Assembly (NCBI GenBank): GCA_963813155.1
Contig: CAWEYG010000001.1
Span: forward strand, 79,058 to 143,057
DNA: 64,000 bases
Origin: an uncultured Acidobacteriota bacterium
GTDB lineage: Bacteria > Acidobacteriota > Thermoanaerobaculia > UBA5066 > DATFVB01
Reading direction: 5' to 3'
The position numbers and the translations under genes are program-made. Each line of letters starts with the position of its first letter. Within the stretch, counting starts at the first letter, position 1. The notes under the pieces are model-generated. The model ran no database searches. It was given only the letters and a program-made list of their open reading frames with translations, and had not been told where the DNA came from. Shown here piece by piece: positions 6,344 through 58,922 of the stretch.

Positions 6344-6420
6344 GGGCCGATGTAGCTCAGTTGGTAGAGCAGCGGTTTCGTAAACCGCAGGTCACCGGTT
6401 CAAGTCCGGTCATCGGCTCC
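6344..6420 (+). tRNA. tRNA-Thr (anticodon CGT)
   Basis: Cloverleaf: acceptor GGGCCGA/TCGGCTC, D-arm TGTAGCTCAGTTGGTAGAGCA, anticodon stem GCGGT/ACCGC with loop TTCGTAA, T-arm GGTTCAAGTCC. CCA is not encoded. Confidence 0.9.
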
Positions 6421-6497
6421 AACCTATTCCAGAGTCAGGCATCGCTCTTGCAATCTCCCCCGACGACTGCCTCGGAAGGGGCGAAAGGAGCGCTGCA

Positions 6498-6644
6498 ATG
6501 TTGTGGACCATCTTCGTGATCCTCCTGATCCTCTGGCTCCTCGGAATGATCACCTCGTACACCCTGGGCGGGTTCATCCACATCCTTCTCGTGATCGCGC
6601 TCGTGGTCCTCGTGATCCGGTTGATTCAGGGCCGCGGAGTCTGA
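6498..6644 (+). CDS. lmo0937-family small membrane protein (48 aa)
   Basis: MLWTIFVILLILWLLGMITSYTLGGFIHILLVIALVVLVIRLIQGRGV, two TM helices. RBS AAAGGAG sits 8 nt upstream. Below the ORF-track size cutoff. Confidence 0.7.
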   Translation: MLWTIFVILLILWLLGMITSYTLGGFIHILLVIALVVLVIRLIQGRGV

Positions 6645-6666: not shown

Positions 6667-7934
<1,268 letters not shown>

Positions 7935-7938
<4 letters not shown>

Positions 7939-8651
7939 GACTCTTTCCTCCGGAACCGCAAGATGGCGCACACTTCTTCGCCCTCCTGCCGCAGTTCGAG
8001 CTCCGCGCCGCTGCCCTGCGCGGCGCGTCGCGCTCGAAGAAGACCGAACCCTCGTCCCGGGCTCGCCTCTCTCTTCGCGACGCCGAAGAGATGCTCGGGG
8101 TCGCCCGCCGGGATCCGGCCGGACGACCGGCATGTCAGAACGATTTCCGAAGACCGATCCTCGATGGACCAGCGGATCGACCCGGGAGCGGAAGAATGCT
8201 CGACCGCGTTTCGGGTGAGCTCGCCGACGGCGAGCCCGACATCTCGCGGCGACGCGAACCAGCGCGGGTCCGGCCCGGGAGCCGGGAGCTCGAGCAGAAG
8301 GCCGCGGGCCATCGCGTCGGCGCGAAGGGGCTCGGAGGCTTCCGCGATCGCCGCGGCCAGCGAAAACTCGGCCGGCTCCTCGATCTCCTCGTGCGAAGCT
8401 TCGGCGATCAAATCGAGCATTCCCGCCGCGCTCTCGAGCGATTGCTGGCACGTCCGGAGGTTCTCGACAACGGCGGCCAAATCGAATCCGCCGGGCCTCT
8501 GCATACGCCGGAGAGCGACCTCCAGGTGCAGGTTCGCCCCCGAGAGAGGGGTAGAAATCTCGTGCCGGAAGCGCCGCAGGAAGCTCTTCAAGGCTTCTCC
8601 CCGGTCTCGCTCGTACAGCGTTTCGCGCGGGATCCGCCCGGTCTCCTGCAT
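7935..8651 (-). CDS. cytoplasmic histidine kinase (HisKA + HATPase, no sensor domain)
   Basis: H-box FLRRFRHEISTPL. GxGxG ATP-lid motifs near the C-terminus. No TM segment. In an operon with the downstream NtrC-type regulator. Confidence 0.8.
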
Positions 8652-8698: not shown

Positions 8699-9448
8699 AT
8701 GTCGCGCATTCTCCTGATCGACGATTCCACGGAAACGGATGCCGTGATCCGGGGGTTCCTTCCTCCCGACGGGCCGCAACTCGAGACCGCCCGGGAAGCC
8801 GGTGAGGGGCTGGACGTCGCGAGGTCGATCCAGCCCGAACTGATCTTCATCAACCTCGCCCTGCCCGGAATTCCCTCGTGGCGCGCGATACGGGAAATCA
8901 AGCGGGACCTCTTCCTCTCGGCGGTCCCGGTGGTCGCGCTCTCGAGCGCCACCCAGGGCGGCGAGCGCGAGCGGGCGCTCGCGGCGGGGTGCGACGATTT
9001 CCTCGCCAAGCCGATTTCCCGCGAAGCCGTCGAGCGCGTTCTCTCGACCCACCTCGCGCCCGCGGACCTGGAACGGACCCGGCCCCTCGCGATCTCGACG
9101 CCGGCGGTTCGCGGCGTCCTTCGCGCTCGAATCCTGCTCGCGTCGGCCGATGCCGACTTTCTCCACCTCTACTCGCCCGCGCTGCAATTCGCCCGCTACC
9201 GGATCGAAACGGTCGCCTCCGGGCACGAGCTGTTCGAGAAGGTCGAGTCGACGCGGCCGCACATCGTGATCCTCGACTCGCGGCTTTCCGACCGCACGGG
9301 CGCCGAGGCGGCGGCCCAGATCAAGGCTCGCCAGAGAGATCCCTTCCTGCCGATCCTCCTGCTGACCGACGGCCGGCCGGAATCCGACGCGGGCTGGAAC
9401 GCGCCGGCCGACGACTTCCTGGCCGGCCGTTTCCGGAGCCGGAACTGA
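8699..9448 (+). CDS. tandem-receiver protein (REC1 has Asn at the phosphoacceptor position, REC2 canonical); probably the N-terminal part of a hybrid kinase cut by a 1-nt deletion at about 9423-9427
   Basis: REC1 MSRILLIDD...IFINLALPG (N where D is expected). REC2 HIVILDSRLSD...PADDFLAGRFRSRN stop. The REC alpha5 motif continues in the adjacent frame as RPFPEPELRFRVRKLLLL. Confidence 0.7.
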   Translation: MSRILLIDDSTETDAVIRGFLPPDGPQLETAREAGEGLDVARSIQPELIFINLALPGIPSWRAIREIKRDLFLSAVPVVALSSATQGGERERALAAGCDDFLAKPISREAVERVLSTHLAPADLERTRPLAISTPAVRGVLRARILLASADADFLHLYSPALQFARYRIETVASGHELFEKVESTRPHIVILDSRLSDRTGAEAAAQIKARQRDPFLPILLLTDGRPESDAGWNAPADDFLAGRFRSRN

Positions 9449-9486
9449 GGTTTCGCGTCCGCAAGCTCCTTCTGCTCTCGAGCGCG

Positions 9487-11064
9487 ATGCAAAGCGAACG
9501 GGACCGATCGCGGCAGCTCGCGACGGTCGCCCGCCACATGACGCGGGGACTGCTGCTCGTCGACGGCGAAGGGCGAATCACCCTGATGAACCGCCCCTGC
9601 GCCGAAATCCTCGGGAGCAAGGCCGATCCGAGAGGCCGCGCCGCGCGCCATCTGCTTCGCTCGGCCGGACTTCGCGACTCGGAAGGCCGCGAGCTGGGCG
9701 CGGACTTCAACCCCGTCGCGAAACTCCGCAAACTTCGCGTTCCGTCCCTGCGCGAGATCTACACGGTGGAGACGGAACCCGGCCAGAGAACGAAGATCGA
9801 GATCGTCTCGACGGCGATCGCCGACAAGGGCAAGCGCGCGCGAGGCGCCGTCCTGCTCCTTCGACGAATCGGCGAGGACGCGGAAGCGCAACGCGAGCTC
9901 CACGAGGCGTACGAAAGGCTGATGGAAGTCGATCAGCTCAAGTCCCAATTCCTGTCGACCGTCTCGCACGAGCTCCGCACGCCGCTCAACACGATCATCC
10001 TGCTGTCGCACGTTCTCACCCGCGAGCCCGGCGAGCGACTCCCGACCGGGAAGAAGGAACACGATCTCCAGGTGATCCAGCAGAGCGCGACGACCTTGCT
10101 CCACATGATCAACAACCTGCTCGACCTCGCGAGAATCGAGGCCGGACAGGCCGAGGTCAGGCCGGAGAGCCTCGCGATCGAGCCGTTCCTGAAGGAGACC
10201 CTGGAAATCCTCTCCCCCCAGGCGGAAAGCCGGGGCCTGCGGTTGCGCCTCGCGGCCTCTCCCGCGCTTCCCGAGCGGGCCGCGTTCGACCGCGAAAAGG
10301 TCCGGCAGATCCTCCTGAACCTGATTTCCAACGCAATCAAGTTCACGCCCCGCGGCTCGGTCGAGCTCGCCGTGGCGCCGGCGGGAGCGGGCAACGTCCT
10401 GTCGTTTTCCGTCCGCGACGAGGGGCTCGGGATCCCGCCGGACAAGCTGTCTTTCATCTTCGAGCCGTTCCGCCGGATTTCGCCCGAAGAAGGAGCGACC
10501 GCCGGCTCGGGCCTGGGTCTCTCGATCGTGAAGGAGCTCGTCCGGCTTATGGGCGGAGAGATTTCGGTCGAAAGCCAGCCGGGCAGCGGCTCGACGTTTC
10601 GCGTCCTGCTGCCGATCCTGCCCGCCGCCGAAGACCCTCACGACTCGACCCGCCCGGCGCGCGCCCCCCGGTCGCGTACCCGGGTCCTGGTTGTGGAAGA
10701 CGACGAAAGCTCGCGTTACGCGCTGACCTCCGTGCTCGCGCTCGAGGGGTACGGGGCCGATTCCGCGCGGAACGGGAAAGAGGCCTTTTCGAAGGCGCAA
10801 TCCGGCGGTTACGACGCGATCTTCATGGACATCAGCCTTCCGGACGAGGACGGAACATCGGTCATCGAGAATCTCCGGCGGCGTCCGGAGACGCGGGCCG
10901 TTCCCATCATCGCCCTGACGGGGAAGACCTCCGACGCCGACCGGCGGAAGATCGAGGCCTCCGGCGCCTCCGCCTACCTTTCCAAACCGGTCAACGTCAA
11001 ACGCCTGCTGAAGACCCTTTCCCAGCTCCTGGACGCTCCCCGCGCAGCCGCGAAGCAGGGTTAA
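9487..11064 (+). CDS. PAS-sensor hybrid histidine kinase (PAS + HisKA + HATPase + C-terminal REC)
   Basis: PAS region LLLVDGEGRITLMNRPCAEILG. H-box STVSHELRTPLN. N-box LLNLISNAIKFT. G-boxes DEGLGIP and GSGLGLSIV. C-terminal receiver RVLVVEDDE...IFMDISLPDEDG...KP. Likely continuous with 8699..9448 once the frameshift is corrected. Confidence 0.85.
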   Translation: MQSERDRSRQLATVARHMTRGLLLVDGEGRITLMNRPCAEILGSKADPRGRAARHLLRSAGLRDSEGRELGADFNPVAKLRKLRVPSLREIYTVETEPGQRTKIEIVSTAIADKGKRARGAVLLLRRIGEDAEAQRELHEAYERLMEVDQLKSQFLSTVSHELRTPLNTIILLSHVLTREPGERLPTGKKEHDLQVIQQSATTLLHMINNLLDLARIEAGQAEVRPESLAIEPFLKETLEILSPQAESRGLRLRLAASPALPERAAFDREKVRQILLNLISNAIKFTPRGSVELAVAPAGAGNVLSFSVRDEGLGIPPDKLSFIFEPFRRISPEEGATAGSGLGLSIVKELVRLMGGEISVESQPGSGSTFRVLLPILPAAEDPHDSTRPARAPRSRTRVLVVEDDESSRYALTSVLALEGYGADSARNGKEAFSKAQSGGYDAIFMDISLPDEDGTSVIENLRRRPETRAVPIIALTGKTSDADRRKIEASGASAYLSKPVNVKRLLKTLSQLLDAPRAAAKQG

Positions 11065-11115: not shown

Positions 11116-11742
11116 ATGATGAACGAGACGCCCGACCAGACACTCGCCGCCGCCTGCCGCGAAGGGGACGAAAAGGCGTGGGACGCGCTGCTCGATCGGT
11201 ACGGGCGCCGGGTGTACGGGATCGCGTACCATTTCACCCTTCGAAAAGAGGACGCCGAGGAGCTCTCCCAGGAGATCTTCCTGAAAGTCTTCGAGAATCT
11301 CCACCGGTTCGACGGCAACTTTTCCTTCGGGGCCTGGATCGTGTCCCTCGCGCGCAACCTCTGCATCGATCACTACCGCCGGCGAAAGAGGGAAAAATCG
11401 TTCGTGCACGTGTCGGACGAAGCCGTGTTTCCCCTTCTCACCGCGACGGACGACCCCGCGCGCAATGCGCTCCAGAAAGAGCGCACGAAACTGCTCTTCG
11501 AGGCGATCGCGGAGCTTCCGGAGGACCTGTCGGAAATCCTGATCCTCCGCGACCTCGACGGGCTCGCCTATGAGGAAATCGGCGCCGCGCTGGACCTGCC
11601 GGAAGGCACGGTCAAGTCGCGCCTCTTCCGCGCCCGGGCGGAGGCCGCCCGGATCATTCGGGTCAAGACCGAGCGCCGGCCGCGCAACGGCGGATGGAAA
11701 CCGGTCACTCTCGCGCTCGCGCTGACGGCGGTGGCGTCGTGA
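11116..11742 (+). CDS. ECF (sigma-70 family, group 4) RNA polymerase sigma factor
   Basis: Region 2 YGRRVYGIAYHFTLRKEDAEELSQEIFLKVF...FSFGAWIVSLARNLCIDHYRRR. Region 4 ILILRDLDGLAYEEIGAALDLPEGTVKSRLFRARAE. Confidence 0.9.
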   Translation: MMNETPDQTLAAACREGDEKAWDALLDRYGRRVYGIAYHFTLRKEDAEELSQEIFLKVFENLHRFDGNFSFGAWIVSLARNLCIDHYRRRKREKSFVHVSDEAVFPLLTATDDPARNALQKERTKLLFEAIAELPEDLSEILILRDLDGLAYEEIGAALDLPEGTVKSRLFRARAEAARIIRVKTERRPRNGGWKPVTLALALTAVAS

Positions 11743-12512
11743 GCTGCGAATTCTTCGAAAAGCATTTCGTCGCGTCCGGCGAGCCCCGGGACCTCGAGGC
11801 TCACGTCGGCGCCTGCGCCGAGTGCCGCTCGCGGTCGGCCGATTTCATCCGGCTCTCCGCGACGATCACGCGCCTCGGCCTGCCGCGCGTCCCGGAGGAG
11901 ACCCGGAATCTCTGGAAAGGCATCCCGTCGGAGACGACGAATTGCGAGCGCGCCTCCGAGCTGTCCGCCCGGCAAGTCGGGGAACCCCTGTCCGAGACGG
12001 ACCGGCGAAAGCTCGACTTCCATCTTTCCCGGTGCGAAGCGTGCCGCGAAACCGCGGCCGTGCTCGGAGTCGCTTCGGAGCTCCAGGCGCCCGCGCCGCC
12101 GGCGGGTTGGACGGTTCGTCCTCCCGCGCCGGTCGTCTCGCTGTCGGACGAGCGCCAGAAACGGGCTTCGCGGCGTTCGGGATGGTCGGACCCCCGGCTC
12201 TACGCGGCCGCCGCCTGTTTCCTCGCCGGTTTCTTCGCCTTCTTCGCGAACAGCCTGCAGGCCCCTCCGGCCGCGGGAGCCGCGCTGTCGGTGACCGGAG
12301 AGATCCGGAACAGCGTTCGCGTGCGGTGGGCCGAGGCCACCGACCGAATTCAGATTTGGCAGGAAGGGATCTCGCGCCACTGGGTGGCCACCCGCGAGAC
12401 CTTGACCGGCTATACCCGGGCCGCGGGAGCGATCGCCCTGTCGGCAGCGGGACGCGCCACGGAAGGATTCCTCCGCAACGAAACGAAAACAGAGAAAGGA
12501 AACAAGTCATGA
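11739..12512 (+). CDS. ZAS-type anti-sigma factor (zinc-binding HxxxCxxC) with TM segment
   Basis: GTG start overlaps the sigma stop (GTGA). Motif EAHVGACAECRSR. Second Cys pair HLSRCEACRE. Hydrophobic stretch LYAAAACFLAGFFAFFA. Confidence 0.7.
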   Translation: MSCEFFEKHFVASGEPRDLEAHVGACAECRSRSADFIRLSATITRLGLPRVPEETRNLWKGIPSETTNCERASELSARQVGEPLSETDRRKLDFHLSRCEACRETAAVLGVASELQAPAPPAGWTVRPPAPVVSLSDERQKRASRRSGWSDPRLYAAAACFLAGFFAFFANSLQAPPAAGAALSVTGEIRNSVRVRWAEATDRIQIWQEGISRHWVATRETLTGYTRAAGAIALSAAGRATEGFLRNETKTEKGNKS

Positions 12513-23426: not shown

Positions 23427-23441
23427 AGGCATAAGCTTTGC
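23427..23441 (+). promoter_or_regulatory. possible sigma54 -24/-12 element (AGGCAT-N5-TTGC)
   Basis: aGGCATaagctTTGCT with GG/GC at the canonical 12-nt register, 57 nt upstream of ATG 23498. Confidence 0.3.
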
Positions 23442-23497
23442 TCGGGACTGGCCGTAGGATTTCGTGATTGGATGATGAGAGTACGAAAGGACGCTGC

Positions 23498-24502
23498 ATG
23501 AAAAAGACGATTCTTGCCGGAGTCTGTGCCCTGGCCTCGCTTCCCCTGCTCGCAACGGAGCTCAATCCTTCCCCCAAGACCGTGCGCCCCGCCCAACTGA
23601 TCGGCGTGCACCGCACGGACGCCGGGCGAGTCCGGCACGCGCTGGACCCCTCGCAGAACGAGGGAGTCAACGTCGACGTCATCGGCCGCCTGGCGGGCGG
23701 CGGAGGCATCCTGTTCAAGACTTCGCTCGACGTCTCGAACAACACGACCGATGCGACGCGAGTGGACTTTTTTGCCGAGCTGAAAGATTCGGCGAACGGA
23801 AATTTCTTCGAGGTCACGGGAAGCATCGCGAATTCCGGAGTCACCTCTCCGGGCGGCGGCCAGCTCCTGGACCTCTCGGTTGCGCATTTCGACGACTTCA
23901 TCGACGCGCTTCGGGTATCCGGCGGGGTGAGCGCGCAGGAGGAGGCGGACGGCCTGCTCGGGTCGCTCGTCCTGGAGTTTTTCGGGTTCTCTCCGGCTCT
24001 GGGCAAGGCCTCGGCGGAGGCTCGCTTCTACAGCACGGTCCCCGCGGGCAATGGATCCTTCTCGGGAGGAACGATCGGCGTCTCGGCGAACGGCCACGAG
24101 TTCACCGACTCGGAGCCCACTAGCCTCGTCGGCATCGTCCGCAACTCGCTTGGAGAGGCGAACACGCCGCAGATCTACACGAACTTCTTCATCTGCAACG
24201 AGGGGTTCGTCGATCCTGTCAACGGCCTCACGGGAAACACGGTCACGCTCCGACTGACGGGATATTCGAACAAGGACGGCAGCGTCACGGGAACGCTCAC
24301 GCTTCCCCCGGTCGCGTGGGGCCAGACGACGGTCGTCTCCGACGTCTTCACGGCGCTCGGCGGGAATCACGCGAAGGACGACACGCTGCTCGTCTTCGTC
24401 GACATCACGAGCGGAAACTCGGCAATCTCCGGTCTCGCTTCGAAGAACGATAACCTGACGAAGGACCCCTCGGCCGCGCAACTGCGCCCCGCGAATTTCT
24501 AG
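23498..24502 (+). CDS. secreted hypothetical protein (334 aa), Gly/Ser/Thr/Asn-rich, no recognisable homology
   Basis: Signal peptide MKKTILAGVCALASLPLLA. RBS GAAAGGA. Followed by an intrinsic terminator. Confidence 0.6.
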   Translation: MKKTILAGVCALASLPLLATELNPSPKTVRPAQLIGVHRTDAGRVRHALDPSQNEGVNVDVIGRLAGGGGILFKTSLDVSNNTTDATRVDFFAELKDSANGNFFEVTGSIANSGVTSPGGGQLLDLSVAHFDDFIDALRVSGGVSAQEEADGLLGSLVLEFFGFSPALGKASAEARFYSTVPAGNGSFSGGTIGVSANGHEFTDSEPTSLVGIVRNSLGEANTPQIYTNFFICNEGFVDPVNGLTGNTVTLRLTGYSNKDGSVTGTLTLPPVAWGQTTVVSDVFTALGGNHAKDDTLLVFVDITSGNSAISGLASKNDNLTKDPSAAQLRPANF

Positions 24503-24525
24503 AAGCTCGGCCTCCGAGATTCTCA

Positions 24526-24553
24526 GGGCCCGCGAGAGCGGGCCCTTTTTCTT
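24526..24553. terminator. bidirectional intrinsic terminator (GGGCCCGC-GAGA-GCGGGCCC + TTTTTCTT) between convergent genes
   Basis: Perfect 8-bp GC stem with GAGA tetraloop and a U-tract on the + strand. Serves the 23498 gene (+) and probably cstA (-). Confidence 0.6.
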
Positions 24554-24555
24554 CG

Positions 24556-26424
24556 CTAGCAGCAGCCGTCCGGCATTTGCGGCGTCCCGACCGCCCCGGA
24601 AGACGAGGCCGCTTCTTCCAGAGGCGGCGGCCCGGTCGCCGCGCCGGGATTCCGCAACAGGCGGCGCCAGACGCGCGCGGACGAGACGAGGATCGAGACG
24701 ACGCAGACAATCAGCACGGCGGTCAGGGTCGAGTCGAGCCATCCCGTGAACGCCTTGCCGGGGATCGCCGCCATCGGGAGAAAATTGTCGCGAATCGACA
24801 GGATTCCGGCATCGATCGTCGTGAACGAAACGAAAGCGAGGGGAACGAGAGTCACGAGGGCAGCGCGAGTCCGGCCGCTCTTCAGGATCACGGTCGTTCC
24901 GATCGAGAGCGCGATTGCGGCGAGGAGCTGGTTCGCGATCCCGAACATCGGCCAGATCTGCGAGATCGATCCCGTCAGAATGAAGTAGGTCCAACCTCCC
25001 ACGACGAGAAGGGTCGCGACGAGAGTCCCGGGAAGCCAGTCGGTCTTCTCGAATTTCGGAAACGCAAGTCCGAGGAATTCCTGGACCAGGAAGCGTCCCA
25101 CGCGGGTCCCCGTGTCGATCGTCGTGAGGATGAACAGCGCCTCGAACATGATCGCGAAGTGGTACCAGTACGACATCAGGCCCTTCAGGAAGGGAAGCCC
25201 CGAAAAGATCCGGGCGAACCCGATCGCGAGCGAAACGGCCCCTCCCGCGCGCCCGGCGACGGATTCCCCGACCTGCCGGGAGAGCTCCGGCAGGTCGACC
25301 GGCGTCATCCCGAGCGTCGCGAATTTCGCGGGCGCCACGTTGATCGCGAAATAGTCCGCCGGGTGCAGGGAGCACACGGCGACGAGCGCGACGACGCCGA
25401 CGAGGCCTTCCATCAGCATCGCGCCGTAGCCGATCATCCGCGCGTCGGATTCGCGGTCGAGCATCTTCGGCGTCGTGCCGGAAGCGACGAGGGCGTGGAA
25501 CCCCGAGATCGCTCCGCACGCGATCGTGATGAAGACGAACGGAAAGACCTTTCCGGGGATGATCGGCCCGCCTCCGTGAACGAAAGCCGAGATCGCGGGC
25601 GCCTGAATCTTCGGCGCGACGACGAACGCGCCGGCAACGAGGACCGCGATCGTCCCGAGCTTCATGTAGCTCGACAGGTAATCGCGCGGACATAGCAGCA
25701 TCCAGACGGGAAGGACCGACGCGATGAAACCGTACGCGGCCATGCCGAAGGTGATCTGCGTGCGCGTCAGGGTGAACGCGGCTTCCATCGGCGAACCGGG
25801 GATGAAGCGGCCGAGCACGACGGCCGCGAGCGTGAGGACCACGCCGATCGCCGAGCCGGAGCGAAGCGCGCCTTTTCTCCAGCGGTACATGTAGAAGCCC
25901 ACGAAGATCGCGATCGGAATCGTCGCGGCAATCGTGAAGGTCCCCCAGGGAGACTCCGCGAGCGCGTTGACGACCGCGACGCCGAGGCCTGCGAGCGCGA
26001 TGACGATGATCGCGAGGATCGCGATCGCCGCCGTCACTCCGGCCGCTGGCCCGATTTCGCTCCGCGTGATCTCCGCCAGGGACTTTCCCTTCCGGCGAAC
26101 CGACGCGACGAGAATCACGAAGTCCTGGGTGGCGCCGGCGAAAACGACGCCGAACAGGAGCCACAGAAACCCGGGAAGGTAGCCGAACTGCGCCGCGAGG
26201 ACGGGGCCGATCAAGGGGCCCGCGCCGGCGATTGCGGCGAAATGGTGGCCGAAGAGCACGTACTTGTTCGTCGCGACGTAGTTCTTGCCGTCCGCCATCG
26301 CGTGCGCCGGGGTCGGCCGCGCGTCCGAAAGTGCGAGAACGCGCGCCGCCAGGAACGCCGAGTAGTAGCGATACGCGATCGCGAGGACGGCGAGCGCCGC
26401 GAGCATCAGCCAGAGCGCGTTCAT
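24556..26424 (-). CDS. cstA: carbon starvation protein A (CstA family peptide/pyruvate transporter)
   Basis: 622 aa polytopic membrane protein. [29 protein letters not shown]...[27 protein letters not shown], characteristic CstA N-terminus. Confidence 0.9.
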
Positions 26425-26465
26425 GGCGCGGCATTATGGCGCAGAAGGAGCGCTAAGATTCCCTC

Positions 26466-26840
26466 ATGGTTCAGCCTCGCGAATTCCGGTATTCCGACAT
26501 CCCCTCTGACCCGCGCGAACTTGCGAAGGACTGCGAGATCTCGTTCTTTCGCGCGTCCGGGCCGGGCGGGCAGCATCGAAACAAGACGGAAACGGCTGTC
26601 CGGGTCGTGCACCTGCCCACCGGCGTCATCGCGGCCGCGGTCGAGGAACGCAGCCAGTCTCGCAACCGCGAGCGGGCATTCGAGCGCCTTCGGGAGAAGC
26701 TCATCCGAAAATTGAAGCCGCGAAAGCCGCGCCGGGAAACGAAAGTCCCGCGGTCGGCGAAGGAAAAACGGCTCGAAGCGAAGATCCGGCGGAGCCGGAC
26801 GAAAGAATTGAGGTCTATTCCCCGAGCTTCTCTCGATTGA
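26466..26840 (+). CDS. arfB: alternative ribosome-rescue factor ArfB (peptidyl-tRNA hydrolase, GGQ motif)
   Basis: GPGGQHRNKTETAVRVVHLPTG followed by a basic C-terminal tail (KLKPRKPRRETKVPRSAKEKRLEAKIRRSR). Confidence 0.85.
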   Translation: MVQPREFRYSDIPSDPRELAKDCEISFFRASGPGGQHRNKTETAVRVVHLPTGVIAAAVEERSQSRNRERAFERLREKLIRKLKPRKPRRETKVPRSAKEKRLEAKIRRSRTKELRSIPRASLD

Positions 26841-28176
26841 GCCCGTAGTGCTCGAGCTTCTTGTAGAGGTTCGACCGCGGCGTTTGAATCGTCTCGGCCG
26901 TCCGGGAAACGTTCCAGTTGTTCTCGCGGAGTTTTGCGAGAAGAAATTCGCGCTCCGTGTATTCCTTGAAGTCCGCGAGCGTCGACATGCGCGACGCCTG
27001 CCCGGCGAGCTCCCTCGGCGAAAACTGGGATTCGGAAGGAATTTCCGCGGCCGTGACGGGATCGGCCTCCGTCATGATCAGAACGCGCTCCACGAGATTC
27101 CGGAGCTCGCGCACATTTCCCGGCCAGGATCGCCCGGCCAGGGCGTCGAGCGCGCTCTTGTGGAACGTACGCCGGCGAACGCCGTTGCGCTCCGCGTACA
27201 CGGCGGCGAAATGCTCGACGAGCGGCACCGCGTCCTCCGGCCGTTCGCGCAGGGGGGCGATGTGCAGCGGCACGACGTTCAGGCGAAAATAGAGATCTTC
27301 CCGAAACGATCCCTTTCGGATCTCGTCAACGAGGTTCTTGTTCGTGGCCGCGATCACGCGGACCTTCACTTTCTGAGTCTTCGATTGGCCGACGGGCTCG
27401 ACCTCGCCCTCCTGCAGCACCCTCAGGACTTTCGCCTGGGCGCGAGCCGACATGTCGCCGACCTCGTCCAGAAAGATCGTCCCTCCGTCGGCCTCGACGA
27501 ACTTCCCGATCTGCTTGCGGACCGCTCCCGTGAACGACCCCTTCTCGTGGCCGAACAACTCGGATTCGATGAGCTCCTCGGGAATCGCCGCGCAGTTCAC
27601 CGTCACGAACGGCCCCTGGGACAGCCGCGAGAGCCGCTGGACCTGGCGCGCGAGGAGCTCCTTGCCGGTTCCCGACTCCCCCGTGACGAGAACGGTCGCG
27701 TCGGACGGGGCCGCCCGCGCGACCTGCTCGTTGAGCCTGCGCACGGAGTCGCTCGCCCCGACGAAAGAATCTTCGATCTCGACTCGGCGCTTGAGCCGGA
27801 CGTTCTCGCGGGCCAGATGGTCGCGCGACACCGCGTTCCGAAGAGAGACGAGCAGGCGCTCGCGCTGAAGGGGCTTCTCGAGGAAATCCACCGCGCCTCG
27901 CTTCGTGCACTCGACAGCCGTCGCGATATCTCCGTGCCCGGAGATCATCAGAACCGGTGGAGGATTCTCGAGCCGCTGGATCTCGTCGAGGGCCTCCATC
28001 CCGTCCTTTCCGGGCATCTTGATGTCGAGCAGCACCGCGTCGGGCCGCCGGGCGTCGATTTCCGAAAGCCCGGAGACGGCGTCCGGAGCGGACGCCGTCT
28101 CGTAGCCGTCGTATTCCAGGATCATCTTGATCGCCTGACGCACCGACGCGTCGTCGTCGACGATGAGAACCCGCAT
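26815..28176 (-). CDS. sigma54-dependent response regulator, NtrC/ZraR family (REC + AAA+ + Fis HTH)
   Basis: MRVLIVDDD...LLDIKMPGKDG. GESGTGKE. ESELFGHEKGSFTGA. GGTIFLDEV. C-terminal HTH TAETIQTPRSNLYKKL. The 3' end overlaps arfB convergently by 26 nt. Confidence 0.9.
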   Translation of the reverse strand: MRVLIVDDDASVRQAIKMILEYDGYETASAPDAVSGLSEIDARRPDAVLLDIKMPGKDGMEALDEIQRLENPPPVLMISGHGDIATAVECTKRGAVDFLEKPLQRERLLVSLRNAVSRDHLARENVRLKRRVEIEDSFVGASDSVRRLNEQVARAAPSDATVLVTGESGTGKELLARQVQRLSRLSQGPFVTVNCAAIPEELIESELFGHEKGSFTGAVRKQIGKFVEADGGTIFLDEVGDMSARAQAKVLRVLQEGEVEPVGQSKTQKVKVRVIAATNKNLVDEIRKGSFREDLYFRLNVVPLHIAPLRERPEDAVPLVEHFAAVYAERNGVRRRTFHKSALDALAGRSWPGNVRELRNLVERVLIMTEADPVTAAEIPSESQFSPRELAGQASRMSTLADFKEYTEREFLLAKLRENNWNVSRTAETIQTPRSNLYKKLEHYGLNREKLGE

Positions 28177-28196
28177 CGGCCGGCTGATCCCGGGCC

Positions 28197-29744
28197 CTAC
28201 TCGCCGACTTTGACGATCGCGAAGAACGAGAACGGACGCTGGCCGAAGCGCCGCACGTAAAAACGCAGGTAATCGCCCTTCTTCGCGTCGCGGACGACCC
28301 GCGAGAGCTCTTCGGCGGAAGCGACCTTGTGGCCGTTGACTTCGGTGATCACGTCGCCTTCCGCCAGCCCGGCATCGTTCGCCGCCGACACTTCGGAGAC
28401 TCCCGTGACGAGGACGCCCGCGACGCTCGGCTCGATCCGGTAGTACTGGCGCCCCTGCGGCGTCAGGTCCTGGACGGAGAGGCCGATTTTTTCCTTCGCG
28501 CCGCCCTCGTTCTCGGGAGCAGCCGTGTCGTTGGATGCCTGGTCGCCCCGGCGCTCCCCGAGCTCGACGGTGAGGTCCTGCATCCTCCCTCCGCGGTTGA
28601 CGGCGAGGCGCACCCGGGCGCCCGGAGGCCTGCCCGACACGTACGAGATGAGGTCCTGCGTCGTGACGACCTCGCGGTCGTCGACCTTCAGGATGACGTC
28701 GCCGTGCTGAACGCCCGCCTTGTCGGCCGGCTGGCCCGGCTCGACCGACTCCACGAGAGCGCCGTTCATGTCCTTGAGGCCGAACGCTTTCATGTTGTCT
28801 TCGTCGAGGTTGCGGATGTTCACTCCCAGGAAGCCGCGCGTGACCTTGCCCTTCGTCTTGAGCTGGTCGAGGATCGACCGGGCCGTGTTGATCGGCACCG
28901 CGAACCCGATGTTCTGGGCCGGACGGTAAATCGCGGTGTTGATGCCGATGACTTCGCCCTCGAGATCGATGAGCGGCCCGCCCGAGTTGCCGAAGTTGAT
29001 CGCGGCGTCGGTCTGGATGAAATTTTCGAACGAGTTCGTGTTCGGATCCAGCGTCAGGTTGTGCCGGCCTTTGGCCGAGACGACGCCGACGGTCACCGTC
29101 TTGTCGAATGCCCAGGGATCGCCGATCGCCATCACCCAGTCGCCGACGCGAATCTTGTCGGAATCCCCGAGCGAAATCGGCGTGAGGCGCTCCTTCGCGT
29201 CGATCTTGATGAGCGCGATGTCGGTCGCGGGATCGGTGCCCACGACCTTCGCCCGATAGGTGTGCTGGTCGCCGACTTTGACCTCGATTTTCTGACCGCT
29301 CTCGACGACGTGGTTGTTCGTCAGGATGTACCCGTCCTGCGAAATGATGAAGCCGGACCCTCCGGCCTCTTCCTTGTGCTCCTGTTGCTGGTCCTGGCCC
29401 TGCCCCGGACCGCCCTGGCCCGGATGCGGAAATCCGAAGAAGAATTCGAACGGATCCTGTCCGTCTCCTCCTCCAAACGGGTTCTGGCCCCCGGAACGGC
29501 GGCGAGGCCCCTTCACGATGTCGGTCGAAGTGATCGAAACGACCGACGGCAGGGCTTCGGCGGCCACGTCGGAAAAAGATGGCAGGTTCCCGGCCGAGGT
29601 CGCCCGTGTCGGCGCGCTGTGCGGCGACTTCTGAGCCAGCGTCTCCGGGGTCCAGTTCGTCGAACTGGCCAGCACGACTCCGAAAATGATCGCCCCCGCG
29701 ATGAGGGCAAAAAAGGAGAGTTGTCTTTTCGCACTCGCGTTCAT
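28197..29744 (-). CDS. degP: Do/DegP/HtrA-family periplasmic serine endoprotease (trypsin domain + 2 PDZ)
   Basis: Catalytic triad context TNNHVV, DIALIK, GNSGGPL. Two PDZ domains. Signal/TM at the N-terminus. ATG 29744 with GGGGG RBS. The track TTG at 29768 is probably not the start. Confidence 0.9.
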   Translation of the reverse strand: MNASAKRQLSFFALIAGAIIFGVVLASSTNWTPETLAQKSPHSAPTRATSAGNLPSFSDVAAEALPSVVSITSTDIVKGPRRRSGGQNPFGGGDGQDPFEFFFGFPHPGQGGPGQGQDQQQEHKEEAGGSGFIISQDGYILTNNHVVESGQKIEVKVGDQHTYRAKVVGTDPATDIALIKIDAKERLTPISLGDSDKIRVGDWVMAIGDPWAFDKTVTVGVVSAKGRHNLTLDPNTNSFENFIQTDAAINFGNSGGPLIDLEGEVIGINTAIYRPAQNIGFAVPINTARSILDQLKTKGKVTRGFLGVNIRNLDEDNMKAFGLKDMNGALVESVEPGQPADKAGVQHGDVILKVDDREVVTTQDLISYVSGRPPGARVRLAVNRGGRMQDLTVELGERRGDQASNDTAAPENEGGAKEKIGLSVQDLTPQGRQYYRIEPSVAGVLVTGVSEVSAANDAGLAEGDVITEVNGHKVASAEELSRVVRDAKKGDYLRFYVRRFGQRPFSFFAIVKVGE

Positions 29745-29816
29745 CAAGTTTTTCCCCCTACCTTTCAACGGCGCTCAATTCTAGCCCAGCGACTCCGCCG
29801 GCTCGCGCTCTGGAGT

Positions 29817-29832
29817 AGCAACGCCGATGCCA
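29817..29832 (-). promoter_or_regulatory. sigma54 promoter (TGGCAT-N5-TTGCT) upstream of degP and the NtrC-like regulator
   Basis: On the minus strand ggaTGGCATcggcgTTGCTact, about 72 nt upstream of the degP ATG. GG and GC lie at the canonical 12-nt spacing. Confidence 0.55.
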
Positions 29833-29890
29833 TCCTAAATCATTCCAGGAAATGGAAGTTGTCGAGCGGGCACGTCAAATCGGCGTACTT

Positions 29891-30301
29891 TCAGCGGATT
29901 TGACGGACTCGATCTTTCATGATGCACCGGTCCATGGCGACGCCGACGCCGGCGGCCTCCAGCCGGCGAGCCGCCTCCGGATCGACGACGCCTTCCTGCA
30001 TCCAGAAGAATCGAGCCTTCCGCTCGATCGCCGGCTCGACGAGAGCGGCGACCGCCGCGGAATTGCGAAAGACGTCCACGATGTCGATGCCGACGCCGGC
30101 TGGAATCTCCAGCAGGGACCCGTAGCAGCGGCGGCCGAGGACCTCCGGATGATTCGGGTTGACGGGGATCACGTCGTAACCGCTTTCGATCAGGAACTGC
30201 ATGATCGAGTGGGAAGCTCGAAACGGGTTCGTCGACGCGCCCACGACGGCGATCGTGCGGGCGCTCGCGAGGATCTCGTGAATCTTGCCCGGCTCGTTCA
30301 C
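29891..30301 (-). CDS. CoA-binding domain protein (YccU-like)
   Basis: TIAVVGASTNPFRASHSIMQFLIESGYDVIPVNP...EIPAGVGIDIVDVFR. GTG start overlaps the tonB stop by 4 nt. Confidence 0.75.
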   Translation of the reverse strand: MNEPGKIHEILASARTIAVVGASTNPFRASHSIMQFLIESGYDVIPVNPNHPEVLGRRCYGSLLEIPAGVGIDIVDVFRNSAAVAALVEPAIERKARFFWMQEGVVDPEAARRLEAAGVGVAMDRCIMKDRVRQIR

Positions 30302-31384
30302 TTGAATTTCCCTTCTTCCCCCGGCCGGATGTTGTAGAAGAACGTGATCGTCACTCCCTCGCGATCCTCGTGCAGGTCCTTCGGCAACGGGCGAAACGGG
30401 CTCGAGGTCGCGATCGCCTGGAACGCGGCGTGGTCGTACGGCGGGATCGTCGAATCGCGCAGGATCTTCTCCGCCTCGACGCTGCCGTCCGCCCGAATGT
30501 AGAAGCGGATCGACAGCTTCCCCTTGACCCCCATTCTCGCCAGGTCCGGCACTTCCCAGTGCAGCTTGATCCGGCGAATCATCTCCTCCGCGTAGTCGCC
30601 CCAGTCGTACCATTGGGTGTCGAAGGAAATCGGCCCCGAGTCGACGAAGCCGCCCGACTCGTTCGGGTTCGGCGACCCGCCCTCTCCGGAGAACGGATTG
30701 CCCGCCGCGGCCTTGATCGCCCGGTTCAGGTTCGGCAGCCGCTGCGCAGCGCCCGGCGTGACCGAGACCCCGGACGGTGCCGTTCCCGCCGGTGACGGCG
30801 TCGTCGAAGACGAGGCCGCCGCGGACTGGGGCGAGGCCTGCGCCGGCGTCGGAGCCGAAGTCGCGGCCGAAGCGCGGCTGCCTTCCTTCCCGCGGGGTCC
30901 CGGGCGAAGGCCCTCGATGCCCGATTTCTGCGCGACGAACGGCGTCTCGGAGGGAGGCTTCGATTTGTCGCCCCCCCCGGCGCGGCGGGTCTTGTCCGAG
31001 GGCGCCGCGTTCCGGTTCGCGTTCTGGCGCGAGGGGCCGGGCGACTCGGCGAAGAACTTCACCGGAACGCGAAATTCCGCCTCGCGGGCTTCCCGGGCGG
31101 CGCGCATTTCCGCCGTCTCCCTGGGCGGCAGCGCGCCCATCGGGTGGAGGACCATGAAAATGACGAGAAGAAGGTGCAGGATGATCGAGATCAGGATCGC
31201 CCGCTCGACCGGGAATCGACGCTGGGGGTGCTCGATCCGTCTCGACGATTTCGTCGATCCGGGGCGCGGGAACGTCCTCGGGCCCCGGACGGCGCGAAAC
31301 GCCCGGCCTCGCCGCGGCCGCCCGCAGCCCGGGCAGGAGCCGGCCCACCTCGGCCTGTTCTTCTTCCTCTTCGACGCCGAACAC
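30298..31384 (-). CDS. tonB: TonB family energy transducer; 1-nt frameshift at a G5/C5 run (31224-31228) separates the N-terminal/TM part from the rest
   Basis: C-terminal TonB domain KLSIRFYIRADGSVEAEKILRDSTIPPYDHAAFQAIATSSPFRPLP. Pro/Ala/Ser-rich spacer. TM helix AILISIILHLLLVIFMVLHP preceded by PQRRFPVER lies in-frame upstream of the track ATG (31155) but has no in-frame start. Removing one C restores a continuous ORF from GTG 31384 (VFGVEEEEEQAEV...). Confidence 0.7.
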
Positions 31385-31441
31385 TTCTTCTTCTAACTCC
31401 AGCAGATCCTATTTTGTTTCCGGATGCCCCCGACTCGCGCC

Positions 31442-31471
31442 TTGCAAGCCCCGCAACACTTCTGATATAAA
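31442..31471 (+). promoter_or_regulatory. sigma70-type promoter (TTGCAA-17/18nt-ATATAA/TATAAA) at the head of the rimP-nusA-infB cluster
   Basis: cTTGCAAgccccgcaacacttctgATATAAAtg. The -10 element abuts or overlaps the first in-frame ATG (31471). Confidence 0.45.
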
Positions 31472-32034
31472 TGCCCAGCGCTTTGGAAAAGCGGGCTTTT
31501 CGCCCGCTTTTTTGTTCGGCGCTTTCGGAGGCGGAGACGAACGGTCTCAGCGAAAAAATTCGGGAAGAGATCCGGAAAATCGCCGCAGAGAGCGGGTGTG
31601 AGCTCGTCGCGATCGAATCGACCGGAACCGGCCGGTTCCAATCGCTGCGCCTGGTCCTGGACAAGCCCGAGGGCGGCGTGACCCTCGAGGACTGCGAACG
31701 GGTTTCGCGGGATGTTTCTCCCCTGCTCGACGCGGAATCGGGAATCCCGCACGCATACACCCTCGAGGTGAGCTCCCCCGGCCTGGACCGCAAGCTCTAT
31801 TCGATCGAAGACGCGAAGAAATTCGTCGGCCGGAGGGTCCGGGTGAAAACGGCGCTTCCCGTCGAAGGCTCCCGGAATTTCCGGGGAAAACTGGACTCCG
31901 TGGAGGGGGACGGACGGCTTCGGATCGTGGACGAAGAGAGCGGAAGAATCTATAATTTCAGTTTTCGTGAGGTTCAGGTCGCCCGCCTCGAGGTGGATTG
32001 GCCGGACTCGGGCGAGAGGCGAAAGAAGAAATGA
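31471..32034 (+). CDS. rimP: ribosome maturation factor RimP (start uncertain)
   Basis: LSEKIREEIRKIAAESGCELVAIES...LEDCERVSRDVSPLLD...YTLEVSSPGLDR matches RimP. The only in-frame starts upstream of the conserved N-terminus are ATG 31471 and TTG 31483. Both overlap the promoter/hairpin. Confidence 0.75.
   Translation: MPSALEKRAFRPLFCSALSEAETNGLSEKIREEIRKIAAESGCELVAIESTGTGRFQSLRLVLDKPEGGVTLEDCERVSRDVSPLLDAESGIPHAYTLEVSSPGLDRKLYSIEDAKKFVGRRVRVKTALPVEGSRNFRGKLDSVEGDGRLRIVDEESGRIYNFSFREVQVARLEVDWPDSGERRKKK
31487..31516 (+). terminator. terminator-like hairpin with U-tract in the rimP 5' region (candidate leader attenuator)
   Basis: aaaaGCGGGCttttcGCCCGCtttttTGTT lies 15-20 nt after the promoter -10 and before the conserved RimP N-terminus. 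Confidence 0.4.
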
Positions 32035-40588: not shown

Positions 40589-40603
40589 TGGCACGCGCCG
40601 TGC
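40589..40603 (+). promoter_or_regulatory. sigma54 promoter (TGGCAC-N5-gTGCT) upstream of the DUF4398 lipoprotein/OmpA gene pair
   Basis: cTTGGCACgcgccGTGCTc. Perfect -24 element and conserved -12 GC. Lies 37 nt upstream of ATG 40641. Confidence 0.5.
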
Positions 40604-40640
40604 TCATCCCATGGATTGGATTCGAAAGAAGGAGATCTCC

Positions 40641-48422: not shown

Positions 48423-48604
48423 GTCACTCCTCTCTGGAATCGCATGAACAATAACTCCCGCTAGCGCGCGGATCAACAACGCGCGGGAGAAACCGCGACG
48501 TCTACGAGCTGTGGCCGTCAGCATTTGCGGCGAGTCGCTCAACTCTGGATTTTACCCGAGCGGTCTCGCGTCGCGCCCCGATCTGGCCGAGCTTTTGCTG
48601 TAAG

Positions 48605-51600
48605 GTGAACAGGGAAAACATGCCTTTTTCGAGACGCGCGAAACTCTGGAGCCACCTGGGGAAGGAACAGCCGATCCGGGCGGAGCTGTACGGACGCGAG
48701 CGTCTGGACGCCGAAGCGGCTCGACTGGCGTCCGCCCACCTCGGCAGCCTTCGGGCGGGGGGGAGAGGCCCGATGCGGGGCCGCCTCGAGGAGAACGACC
48801 GCCAGCTCCGGATGATTCACGCGTCGATCGTCGCGGGGGCCAAGCGCGGCGAGACCATCTCTCCGGCTGCCGAATGGTTCCTCGACAATTTCCATCTCGT
48901 CCTCGACCAGGTCCGCGAAGTCCGTCAGGACTTTCCCGCGCACTACGAGCGGGAGCTTCCGCACCTTACCCGGGGAGAGCTCGGCGGTTACCCGCGCGTC
49001 TACTCGATCGCCACAACGCTCGTCGCCCACACCGACAGCAGCCCCGACATGGAGACGCTCAAGAATTTCCTCGACGCGTACCAGGCGGTCTCTCCGCTGT
49101 CGATCGGCGAGCTGTGGGCGATTGCCGTCGCGCTCCGCGTCGCGCTGATCGAGAACCTCAGGCGCCTCGCCGGCCGCATGGAAGTCGCGCGGCGCGAGCG
49201 CGCAAAGGCCGACGCCCTCACCGAACGGGTGCTGTCGGCGCTCGAAACGGCGACCGGCCTTCCGGAGCGGGAGGCGATCGCCGAAGCCGTGTTGAAGGCT
49301 CCCGAACGGCGAGAGTTGAGAATCAATCAAACGTTTGCCGTGCGCCTCATTCAGCGCCTCCGAGACGTCGATCCGTCGCTCTCGACGGTACACCGGTGGA
49401 TCGAAGAAGGCCTCGCGGCCCAGGGACTCACGGTCGAAAGCGCGGTGCTGGCCGAGCACCAGAGGCAGACGACCGCGCAGGCGACGATCGCGAACATCAT
49501 TTCGAGCATGCGGCTCTTCTCGCAGGCCGCATGGCCGGATTTCGTGGAGTCTGTCAGCGCCGCCGAGCGGGTGCTCGAGGAGGACCCGGCGGGAGCCTAT
49601 CCGCACCAGGATTTCGAGACCCGGGACCGCTACCGGCACGTCCTCGAAGCGCTCGGGAACAGGGATGGCGCGCGCGAGCTGGCCGCCGCGCGCCGCGCCG
49701 TGGAGCTGGCGAGCGAGGGAGCCGCGCCCCGCGAACGCCACGTCGGCCACTACCTCGTGGACGCCGGCCGTCCGATCCTCGAGCGCGAGCTGGGCGTGCG
49801 CCCCGGGCTCGCGGCTGCCACCCGCCGTCTCGTCCTTCGCTCCCCTGCGGCGTTCTACATCGGGTCGATTCTCCTGATCACCGCGGCGATGGAGGCGATT
49901 GCAGGCGCCTACGTCCGGGCCCACGGAGCGGGCTGGACGATGCTCGCCGTGTCTCTCCTCCTGTCCCTGATCCCGGGAACGGAGCTCGCGCTCTCGATCG
50001 TGAATTTTTCCGTCAACTTCCTGATTCCTCCCCGCCGGCTTCCGAAGCTCAAATGGCGCGACGGCATCCCGGAGGACTTCCAGACGCTCGTCGCGGTCCC
50101 GTCTTTTCTCGGCGACGAGGAGGAAATCCGCGAGCTTCTGTCTTCACTCGAAATCCGCTCCTACGCCAACCCCGACCCGAACCTCCGCTTTGCTCTCCTG
50201 ACCGACTTCGGGGACGCGGACACGGAGACACTGCCGGACGAAGACCGGCGTCTTCAGCTGGCCGAGGACGGAATCCGGGATCTCAACTCCCGGGCCTCAT
50301 CGCCCGGGCGATTCTGGCTTCTCCACCGAAAGCGGCTGTGGAACGCGGCGGAGGGGAAGTGGATGGGGTGGGAGCGAAAACGCGGAAAACTGACGGAGCT
50401 CAACCGCCTCCTTCGCGGCCGCGGACCCACGAGTTTCGAGGTCGTGACCGCCGAACCGGCTGCCCTGGCGAAAATCCGGTTCGTTCTCACGCTCGACGCC
50501 GACACGCGGCTTCCCCGGGAGTCCGCGAGCGCGCTCGTGGGGACCCTCGCGCACCCGCTGAACCTTCCGCGGTCGGATGCGAAGACCGGGCGCGTCGTCG
50601 CGGGCTGCTCGATCGTCCAACCGCGCGTCTCCATCACTCCGGAAAGCGCGAATCGCTCTCCGTTCGCCCAGATCTCCTCCGGCCACGCGGGGATCGACCC
50701 CTACACGACCGCCGTCTCCAACGTCTACCAGGACCTCTTCGGCGAGGGCAGCTTCACCGGAAAAGCAATTTACGACGTGGACGCGTTCGAGTCCGCGCTC
50801 GCCGGGCGAATCCCGGAAAACGCGATCCTCTCGCACGACCTGCTCGAGGGCTGTCTCGCCGGCTCGGCTCTCGCAACCGACATCGAGATCTTCGAAGACC
50901 ATCCCTCGTCCTACGACGTCTACACGCGCCGGCAGCACCGCTGGATCCGCGGAGACTGGCAGATCGCCCGGTGGCTCGGCCGCAGTGTGCCGATGGAAAG
51001 AGGAATCGAGGCGAACCCGCTTTCGGCAATTTCCCGATGGAAGATCCTCGACAACTTGAGGCGGAGCCTCCTCGCACCGGCCCTTTTCCTCTGGCTCGCC
51101 GCCGCCTGGCTCTTCCTCCCGGGCTCTCCCTTTTTCTGGACGACTCTCGCGATGTCCGCGATCGCTTTCCCGATCATCTTTCATCTCGCCGAAGGCCTCA
51201 CCATCCACGCCCGGGGCGTTCCCTGGACGAGCCAGTTCTGGAGCGTCTGGGGAGATCTGCTGGACAATTGCGCGCAGTTCGCGCTTCGCGTCGCCTTCCT
51301 TCCCCACCTTGCGGAGGTTTCGATCGACGCCGCCAGCCGGGCCCTTTTCCGGCAGCTGATCTCCCACCGGCGACTCCTGGAGTGGACGACGGCGGCCGCC
51401 GCCGAAAAGGACCGCGTCTCCTCGGTCGCCGGCTACGCAAGGCGAATGGGGAGAAGCTGGGTGGTGTCCGCAGCGCTCGCCGGGGCGATCGTGGCGATCG
51501 CCCCGCGCCACCTGCCGGCCGCCGCCGGGTTCCTCCTCCTCTGGCTGATCTCGCCGGCGCTCGCCGCGGGCGTGAGCCGGCCGATTCGCCGGGAGCGACG

Positions 51601-58905: not shown

Positions 58906-58922
58906 CCGGCACCTCCCTTGCA
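58906..58922 (+). promoter_or_regulatory. sigma54 promoter (cGGCAC-N5-TTGCA)
   Basis: ccGGCACctcccTTGCAcc, near-consensus -24/-12, 53 nt upstream of ATG 58976. Confidence 0.5.

Follow-up and report, generated by a model that had tools for sequence, protein, structure and literature searches.

A conserved, predicted sigma-54 promoter precedes a degP-activator operon in an uncultured Acidobacteriota bacterium

The window analysed here, a 64-kb stretch of DNA from an uncultured Thermoanaerobaculia bacterium (Acidobacteriota), carries on its minus strand a degP/htrA gene followed by the gene for a sigma-54-dependent response regulator. A TonB-like and a CoA-binding gene lie upstream of the pair, and a convergent arfB-like gene closes it off downstream. 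The genes and elements of the locus are as follows:

26466..26840, plus strand: arfB-like gene (GGQ peptidyl-tRNA hydrolase; SGPGGQHRNKTETAV motif in the translation)
26815..28176, minus strand: sigma-54-dependent response regulator (bacterial enhancer-binding protein), 453 aa
28197..29744, minus strand: degP/htrA, Do-family periplasmic serine endopeptidase, 515 aa
29745..29806, minus strand: predicted degP 5' untranslated leader, ~62 nt, with a GGGGGA ribosome-binding site; extent deduced from the -12 element
29817..29832, minus strand: predicted sigma-54 (-24/-12) promoter TGGCATCGGCGTTGCT, read as TGGCAT-cggcg-TTGCT
29836..29847, minus strand: conserved AT-rich block TGGAATGATTTA, just 5' of the -24 element
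29873..29905, minus strand: inverted repeat CGTCAAATC-N15-GATTTGACG, found by repeat search, with its centre at ~-83 from the predicted start
29891..30301, minus strand: CoA_binding_2 gene (Pfam), 146 nt from degP
30298-31155, minus strand: TonB-like gene, upstream of CoA_binding_2

The degP product scores 477.6 bits against NCBIfam model TIGR02037 (cutoff 416.2), which places it in that family, and Pfam recognises a Trypsin_2 domain (5e-35) and two copies of PDZ_2. Its catalytic residues H145, D175 and S254 are all present, hydrophobic residues 11-26 form an N-terminal membrane anchor or signal, and the start codon at 29744 is preceded by a GGGGGA Shine-Dalgarno sequence. The regulator encoded behind it features the full NtrC-type set that defines its class, namely a receiver domain with its phospho-acceptor aspartate (D51), an AAA+ module with Walker A (GESGTGKE, 166-173), a GAFTGA-type loop (GSFTGA, 213-218) and Walker B (IFLDEV, 234-239), and a Fis-type HTH, with Pfam matches to Response_reg (1.5e-30), Sigma54_activat (8.6e-70), AAA_lid_14 and HTH_8 (4.1e-6). 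Its best NCBIfam model is NtrX (NF051870), and relatives of the protein, which occur in Thermoanaerobaculia MAGs, are labelled NtrX by JGI; as the score of 420.4 bits is under the equivalog cutoff of 600, we file the protein only as an NtrX-like orphan activator.

The degP stop codon (28199-28197) and the activator ATG (28176) are separated by 20 nt, in which no terminator was found, and the two genes are likely co-transcribed. At the distal end the 3' ends of the activator and arfB genes converge and overlap by 26 nt (26815-26840), so that the operon comprises degP and the activator only; cstA (24556-26424) was considered as a further member and rejected, as the convergent arfB gene intervenes. 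This cstA gene, for carbon starvation protein A, is found between arfB and the gene for a secreted protein and is absent from that position in the 95%-identical locus L005, which suggests a recent insertion or deletion. On the proximal side the CoA_binding_2 start codon (GTG) and the TonB-like stop codon (TGA) share bases (GTGA, 30301-30298), and these two genes form an upstream unit of their own, separate from degP. No histidine kinase adjoins the operon, whose neighbours are the TonB-like and CoA_binding_2 genes on one side and those for ArfB and CstA on the other; the nearest kinases (7935-8651 and 8878-11064) lie more than 15 kb off, beside another response regulator.

The predicted promoter sits inside the 146-nt gap between the stop of the CoA_binding_2 gene (29891) and degP, in the minus-strand context ...ttagga TGGCAT cggcg TTGCT actcc.... 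Its GG (29831-29830) and GC (29819-29818) are spaced by exactly 10 nt, the sequence departs from TGGCAC-N5-TTGCW by a single mismatch (C to T at -21), and 72 nt separate the end of the motif at 29817 from the degP ATG at 29744. The site is the sole exact match to TGGCAY-N5-TTGCW on either strand of the 64-kb window, and dinucleotide-preserving shuffles of the window yielded no match at all (0/100). We infer that sigma-54 would bind here and that transcription would start at about 29806, as counted from the -12 element; an Rfam search of the resulting leader matched no family. Promoter prediction across 24000-31500 found no sigma-70 consensus promoter with both hexamers. The GG/GC spacing and context, the non-coding location on the same strand as degP and the conservation at orthologous positions described below are those of a sigma-54 promoter, and on these sequence features we consider the element very probably functional.

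Two further elements are found upstream. The columns of the AT-rich block TGGAATGATTTA are invariant in an alignment of the five closest loci, and the block might serve as an upstream or architectural element, or else as an overlapping promoter for sigma-A of the extended -10-like kind (TGnAATGAT). The inverted repeat runs across the stop codon of the CoA_binding_2 gene, and its centre at -83 is at about the usual position of an activator site; as RNA it is predicted to fold into a hairpin of -20.1 kcal/mol (z = -3.1). It may either bind the activator, as a candidate UAS, or form the hairpin at which the upstream transcript ends. In L001 a paired T>C / A>G change spans both arms; the left arm is not preserved in L002 and L113, and conservation of the repeat is confined to the nearest relatives. 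A TTGACG half-site scan of six candidate promoters of the window, listed further below, located the repeat at degP only, and neither k-mer enrichment nor TTGACG scans recovered a shared upstream activator site across clades, the enriched k-mers being all coding-derived. Finally, a TAGAAT hexamer is positioned ~35 nt before the degP ATG, and no strong terminator with a T-run was found between the CoA-binding gene and degP.

Relatives were gathered by a DegP-based scan with one genome per species, which returned Thermoanaerobaculia/Acidobacteriota MAGs, and were complemented by metagenome matches to the activator. DegP identity to the window reaches 95% in L005, 89% in L001 and 77% in L002, the last of which is a complete 3.8-Mb chromosome (OY970224.1). 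Sorted by synteny, the loci fall into five groups:

Group A1: the window, L001, L002, L005 and L113; (TonB-CoAb-)DegP-activator, with a 10-20-nt gap
Group A2 (sister clade): L003, L004 and L135-L138; gene order as in A1, with a gap of 70-160 nt
Group B: L006-L010, L013-L017 and L045; TonB-(CoAb)-DegP, with no activator within 6 kb
Group C: L018-L023; DegP-activator without TonB
Group D: ~30 of the 80 best metagenome matches to the activator, at 51-58% identity; DegP immediately upstream

DegP of group B, whose genomes include for example CAWCSP010000004.1 and CAWDEX010000001.1, is 48-53% identical to that of the window, and the genes that follow it, where examined, are unrelated (in L006 and L013 a radical-SAM gene in convergent orientation, in L017 a gene for outer-membrane efflux). 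A search for activator homologs on long contigs, aimed at locating the group B activator, returned the TonB-CoAb-DegP-activator layout again in four of four cases. The typical order in group D is LigA-DegP-activator-epimerase, with an NAD-dependent DNA ligase and an NAD-dependent epimerase at its ends (soil metagenomes; for instance L058, L077, L080 and L083). A histidine kinase was considered as the conserved gene upstream of DegP in these metagenome loci and rejected, the gene in question being the NAD-dependent DNA ligase. Overall, taking Thermoanaerobaculia and the soil-metagenome lineages together, the DegP-activator pair has at least four different synteny contexts. As a separate observation, the degP match of L005 (6001-7540) is broken into three tblastn pieces, which suggests frameshifts, possibly stemming from long-read assembly errors rather than from a pseudogene.

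In all five A1 loci TGGCAYCnnnGTTGCW is found 87-107 nt ahead of the degP start (DegP of the relatives being 77-95% identical), and the longest invariant run in a MAFFT alignment of the A1 intergenic sequences, at 70% mean column identity, is TGGAAT-ATTTA...TGGCA-C...GTTGC. In group B, CGGCACG-N4-TTGC is found 65-106 nt before the start in 11 of 11 loci (as TGGCAAG-N4-TTGC in L016) and constitutes the only invariant block in an alignment of 10 of the 11, the AT-rich block being absent from this group. The -24/-12 element was thus seen in 16 of ~22 orthologous degP loci, against a background of ~0.007 such matches per 120-nt single-strand window, as estimated from these same loci with the real sites included. 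Conservation in both A1 and B is strong phylogenetic-footprint evidence for a functional promoter that predates the clade of the window. Group B loci also conserve CTATCATCT / GTATCAT just before the degP start (L006-L010 and L045, ~10-25 nt before it, and L013-L015), possibly a second, sigma-A-type -10 element that would give a very short leader.

The remaining groups present a different picture. In the sister clade A2 the promoter is weak in L004 (GGGCAAGAATGTTGCG) and L135 (AGGCCGAAACGTTGCT) and destroyed in L003 and L136-L138, and four of these loci feature an intrinsic terminator, a GC-rich hairpin with a T-run, between degP and the activator gene:

L003, ~7540-7590: terminator hairpin
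L004, ~7555-7590: terminator hairpin
L136, ~6870-6910: terminator hairpin
L138, ~4870-4910: terminator hairpin

The tight, terminator-free operon is specific to A1, the clade of the window. The promoter element is variable in group C, and within 350 nt upstream of degP no site with up to two mismatches (<=2) was found in the 18 LigA-DegP-activator loci of group D. A -24/-12-like site downstream of the activator is present in L078 (3864), L083 (5943), where it precedes the epimerase gene, L090, L091 and L092 (4404). With respect to the locus itself, the sequence-only reading that preceded this work had described a near-consensus sigma-54 promoter about 72 nt before degP, a complete sigma-54 activator 20 nt behind it and no adjacent cognate kinase. 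This description holds throughout: the promoter has exact spacing, is unique in the window and is conserved in relatives, the regulator has its domains, GSFTGA loop and Walker A/B motifs intact, and the nearest kinase is more than 15 kb away.

To place the degP promoter in its genomic setting, we turn to other traces of sigma-54 in the window, which comprise five further candidate promoters and a second activator:

6437-6452, plus strand: site AGGCATCGCTCTTGCA, 45 nt before a gene for a 48-aa DUF5670 membrane protein (6498-6644) and ~18 nt downstream of a tRNA gene (6346-6418)
6667-7932, minus strand: second sigma-54 activator, REC and AAA+ with GSFTGA, no HTH_8
23427-23442, plus strand: site AGGCATAAGCTTTGCT, 55 nt ahead of a gene for a secreted 334-aa protein (ATG at 23498)
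40589-40604, plus strand: site TGGCACGCGCCGTGCT, between the pnp terminator and a gene pair, DUF4398 lipoprotein and DUF4398-OmpA
48584-48599, plus strand: site TGGCCGAGCTTTTGCT, ~20 nt before a gene for a 2520-aa GH94/Glycoamylase/GT2 protein (48620-56182)
58907-58922, plus strand: site CGGCACCTCCCTTGCA, 53 nt before a gene for a secreted 374-aa protein

Together with the degP promoter, the five further candidates bring the window's 6 kb of intergenic DNA to six GG/GC-anchored sites (<=2 mismatches), each oriented toward the start codon of a gene downstream. Only 0.55 such sites are predicted by a Markov model of this same intergenic sequence, and none of 1000 simulations reached six; the enrichment of ~11-fold points to active use of sigma-54 by the organism. 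A search for the RpoN box in all six reading frames of the window and of the 138 relatives' loci gave no match; the presence of rpoN is implied by the six -24/-12 sites and by the occurrence of two activators with GAFTGA-type loops within 64 kb. Among the relatives' loci, all 87 related activators (87/87) carry GSFTGA or GAFTGA. The second activator of the window is directly preceded by the gene for a 238-aa HATPase_c protein (7935-8651, minus strand), and a hybrid kinase (8878-11064) adjoins the two.

The AGGCATAAGCTTTGCT site is identical in L005 (~10746, minus strand) and lies ~3.4 kb from the activator gene in the window and ~1.8 kb from it in L005, where cstA is absent; the secreted 334-aa protein behind it matches no Pfam or NCBIfam family. 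The TGGCCGAGCTTTTGCT site is doubtful because the leader would be very short (~20 nt to the ATG), and the 2520-aa GH94/GT2 protein that follows is read as a cyclic beta-1,2-glucan-synthase-like enzyme. The genes behind the six candidate sites all have envelope or secretome functions, in keeping with the general role in control of the bacterial exterior that has been proposed for sigma-54 (Francke et al. 2011, PMC3162934).

These data are compatible with a model where a sigma-54 promoter drives a bicistronic degP-activator operon, and as a whole we regard this mechanism as reasonably probable. RNA polymerase-sigma-54 would occupy the GG (-24) and GC (-12) elements in a closed complex unable to open unaided, an unlinked histidine kinase would phosphorylate the receiver aspartate of an NtrC-family activator, and the phosphorylated activator would oligomerise on upstream DNA, for which CGTCAAATC-N15-GATTTGACG at ~-83 is the candidate site. 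Its GSFTGA loop would then touch sigma-54 and ATP hydrolysis would open the promoter, with transcription running from ~29806 through degP and the activator gene and ending at the convergent arfB, to yield the periplasmic protease/chaperone together with the activator. The co-transcribed protein would most likely be the activator in question, closing a positive feedback loop. The inducing signal would presumably be envelope protein-folding stress, and the acting activator and the identity of the kinase are likewise presumed.

The comparison of relatives bears directly on the feedback step. Promoter and activator adjacency are separable in evolution, the promoter being found without an adjacent activator at 11 loci (group B), the activator with a decayed or absent promoter at six (A2) and the DegP-activator pair without a degP promoter at 18 metagenome loci (group D), and we therefore only infer that the co-transcribed protein is the PdegP activator. 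An alternative, which strikes us as unlikely though worth serious attention, is that an unlinked enhancer-binding protein fires the degP promoter while the co-transcribed regulator is cargo that acts on other promoters in a cascade. Such an arrangement would accommodate group B, which retains the degP promoter with no activator within 6 kb, although the orthologous activator may sit elsewhere in those genomes; it is also consistent with the 18 metagenome pairs and with the several metagenome loci that place a -24/-12-like site behind the activator (L078, L083, L090, L091, L092). In the window itself at least four or five other candidate sigma-54 promoters need activators, and the one at 23427-23442 is within a few kilobases of the regulator gene (~3.4 kb, or ~1.8 kb in L005). 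On the other hand, five of five A1 loci pair a strong promoter with a 10-20-nt degP-activator gap, and the TTGACG inverted repeat accompanies the degP promoter and none of the other candidates. A promoter and its own activator in one operon also constitute the classic autoregulated layout, and we judge autoregulation of degP by its co-transcribed activator to be plausible, with the balance tilting slightly in its favour.

A more radical departure from the sigma-54 model is that the -24/-12 site goes unused and that degP is read by the housekeeping sigma factor, from the extended -10-like TGGAATGAT or from TAGAAT, or by read-through from the tonB-CoA-binding unit, in which case the conserved block would reflect another DNA-binding factor. 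We find this highly improbable. The TGGAATRATTTA sequence directly upstream is indeed as conserved as the motif itself in the five closest loci, the conserved TGGAATRAT immediately before the motif could act as a sigma-A promoter of the extended -10 type, and the TAGAAT hexamer ~35 nt before the ATG, the lack of a strong T-run terminator behind the CoA-binding gene and the ability of sister clade A2 to manage without a good -24/-12 site all go in the same direction. However, no two-hexamer sigma-70-type promoter is predicted, and group B, which lacks the AT-rich block, has GGCACG-N4-TTGC as its sole invariant sequence, exactly spaced. By chance ~0.007 matches per locus would be expected, against 16 of ~22 orthologous loci observed, and -24/-12 sites are enriched ~11-fold in the window's intergenic sequence. 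Basal transcription from a sigma-A promoter could nevertheless accompany that from the sigma-54 promoter at degP.

The sequence-only reading had further proposed that degP is co-transcribed with, and possibly autoregulated by, its neighbour, in a circuit run by sigma-54 rather than by sigma-E. Co-transcription is likely, given the 20-nt gap and the lack of a terminator in it, while autoregulation is only plausible, as promoter and activator also occur independently across relatives. The opposition to sigma-E was over-stated: the window encodes an ECF sigma factor and its partner, and the organism therefore also has sigma-E-type regulators.

11116-12512, plus strand: ECF sigma factor (Sigma70_r2/r4_2) followed by a zf-HC2 anti-sigma-like protein

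Overall, degP is an unusual target under a familiar type of regulation, and the mechanism is not a new one. The conserved -24/-12 promoter would wire periplasmic proteostasis to sigma-54 and an AAA+ activator in a deep-branching, uncultured class of Acidobacteriota, and provides a concrete, testable target for the idea that sigma-54 governs the bacterial exterior; the comparison also flags a widespread DegP/NtrX-like gene pair. As the organism is uncultured, the practical impact is modest, and the significance would be greater if the DegP/NtrX-like pair and a dense envelope-directed sigma-54 regulon were general for Acidobacteriota. A bolder and quite doubtful extension is that DegP and the orphan NtrX-like activator form an ancient envelope-surveillance module in which the protease signals to the regulator, with sigma-54, not an ECF sigma factor, as the main envelope and secretome controller in Thermoanaerobaculia. 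The latter role is suggested by the genes behind the six -24/-12 promoters of the 64 kb, all of which belong to the membrane, lipoprotein, secreted or periplasmic-glucan categories; if the extension were true, DegP would take part in signalling to a regulator that has no kinase.

DegP/HtrA is a textbook output of the sigma-E and Cpx envelope stress pathways. The literature that we searched contains no description of a direct sigma-54 promoter for degP/htrA, with indirect mentions only, and two broad surveys of sigma-54 regulons are silent on DegP, HtrA and Acidobacteria. Two-component control of HtrA-family proteases is known from CpxRA-degP in E. coli (with sigma-E), CssRS-htrA in Bacillus and MprAB-pepD in mycobacteria, and these systems resemble the present locus in tying a response regulator to an HtrA-family protease and to secretion or envelope stress. 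Their regulators are of the OmpR type and work with sigma-70 or an ECF sigma factor, whereas the window combines a -24/-12 promoter with an AAA+ enhancer-binding protein. The Psp system, a sigma-54-dependent response to inner-membrane stress, shares with it a sigma-54-driven reaction to envelope damage and is an example of an envelope stress circuit under sigma-54. In contrast to the activator described here, PspF has no receiver domain and is controlled by the binding of PspA; the psp target genes are unrelated to DegP, and the activator scores under the cutoff of the PspF model.

Alphaproteobacterial NtrX proteins are not known to carry the GAFTGA loop or to act with sigma-54. The activator of the window differs from NtrX in retaining a GAFTGA-type loop (GSFTGA), in scoring below 600 and in lacking an adjacent NtrY kinase, and resembles it in that NtrX is its best-scoring NCBIfam model. 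In Rhodobacter sphaeroides, the cell envelope is reported to be under NtrYX control (PMC7240162).

Against the NCBIfam ZraR model the activator reaches 349.5 bits, well under the cutoff of 760, and it is closer to NtrX than to ZraR, so that the locus does not classify as a ZraPSR system. In E. coli and Salmonella, the sigma-54-dependent ZraR of ZraPSR activates both zraP and zraSR in envelope stress. The target there is the ZraP chaperone and here a Do-family protease, and the operon has neither a kinase corresponding to ZraS nor a zraP gene beside it, and no divergent promoter pair. What the two have in common is an NtrC-family regulator with REC, AAA+ and HTH domains, a sigma-54 promoter on a periplasmic protein-quality-control factor, and a regulator gene placed within the unit that it regulates, or, in the present case, would regulate through positive feedback.
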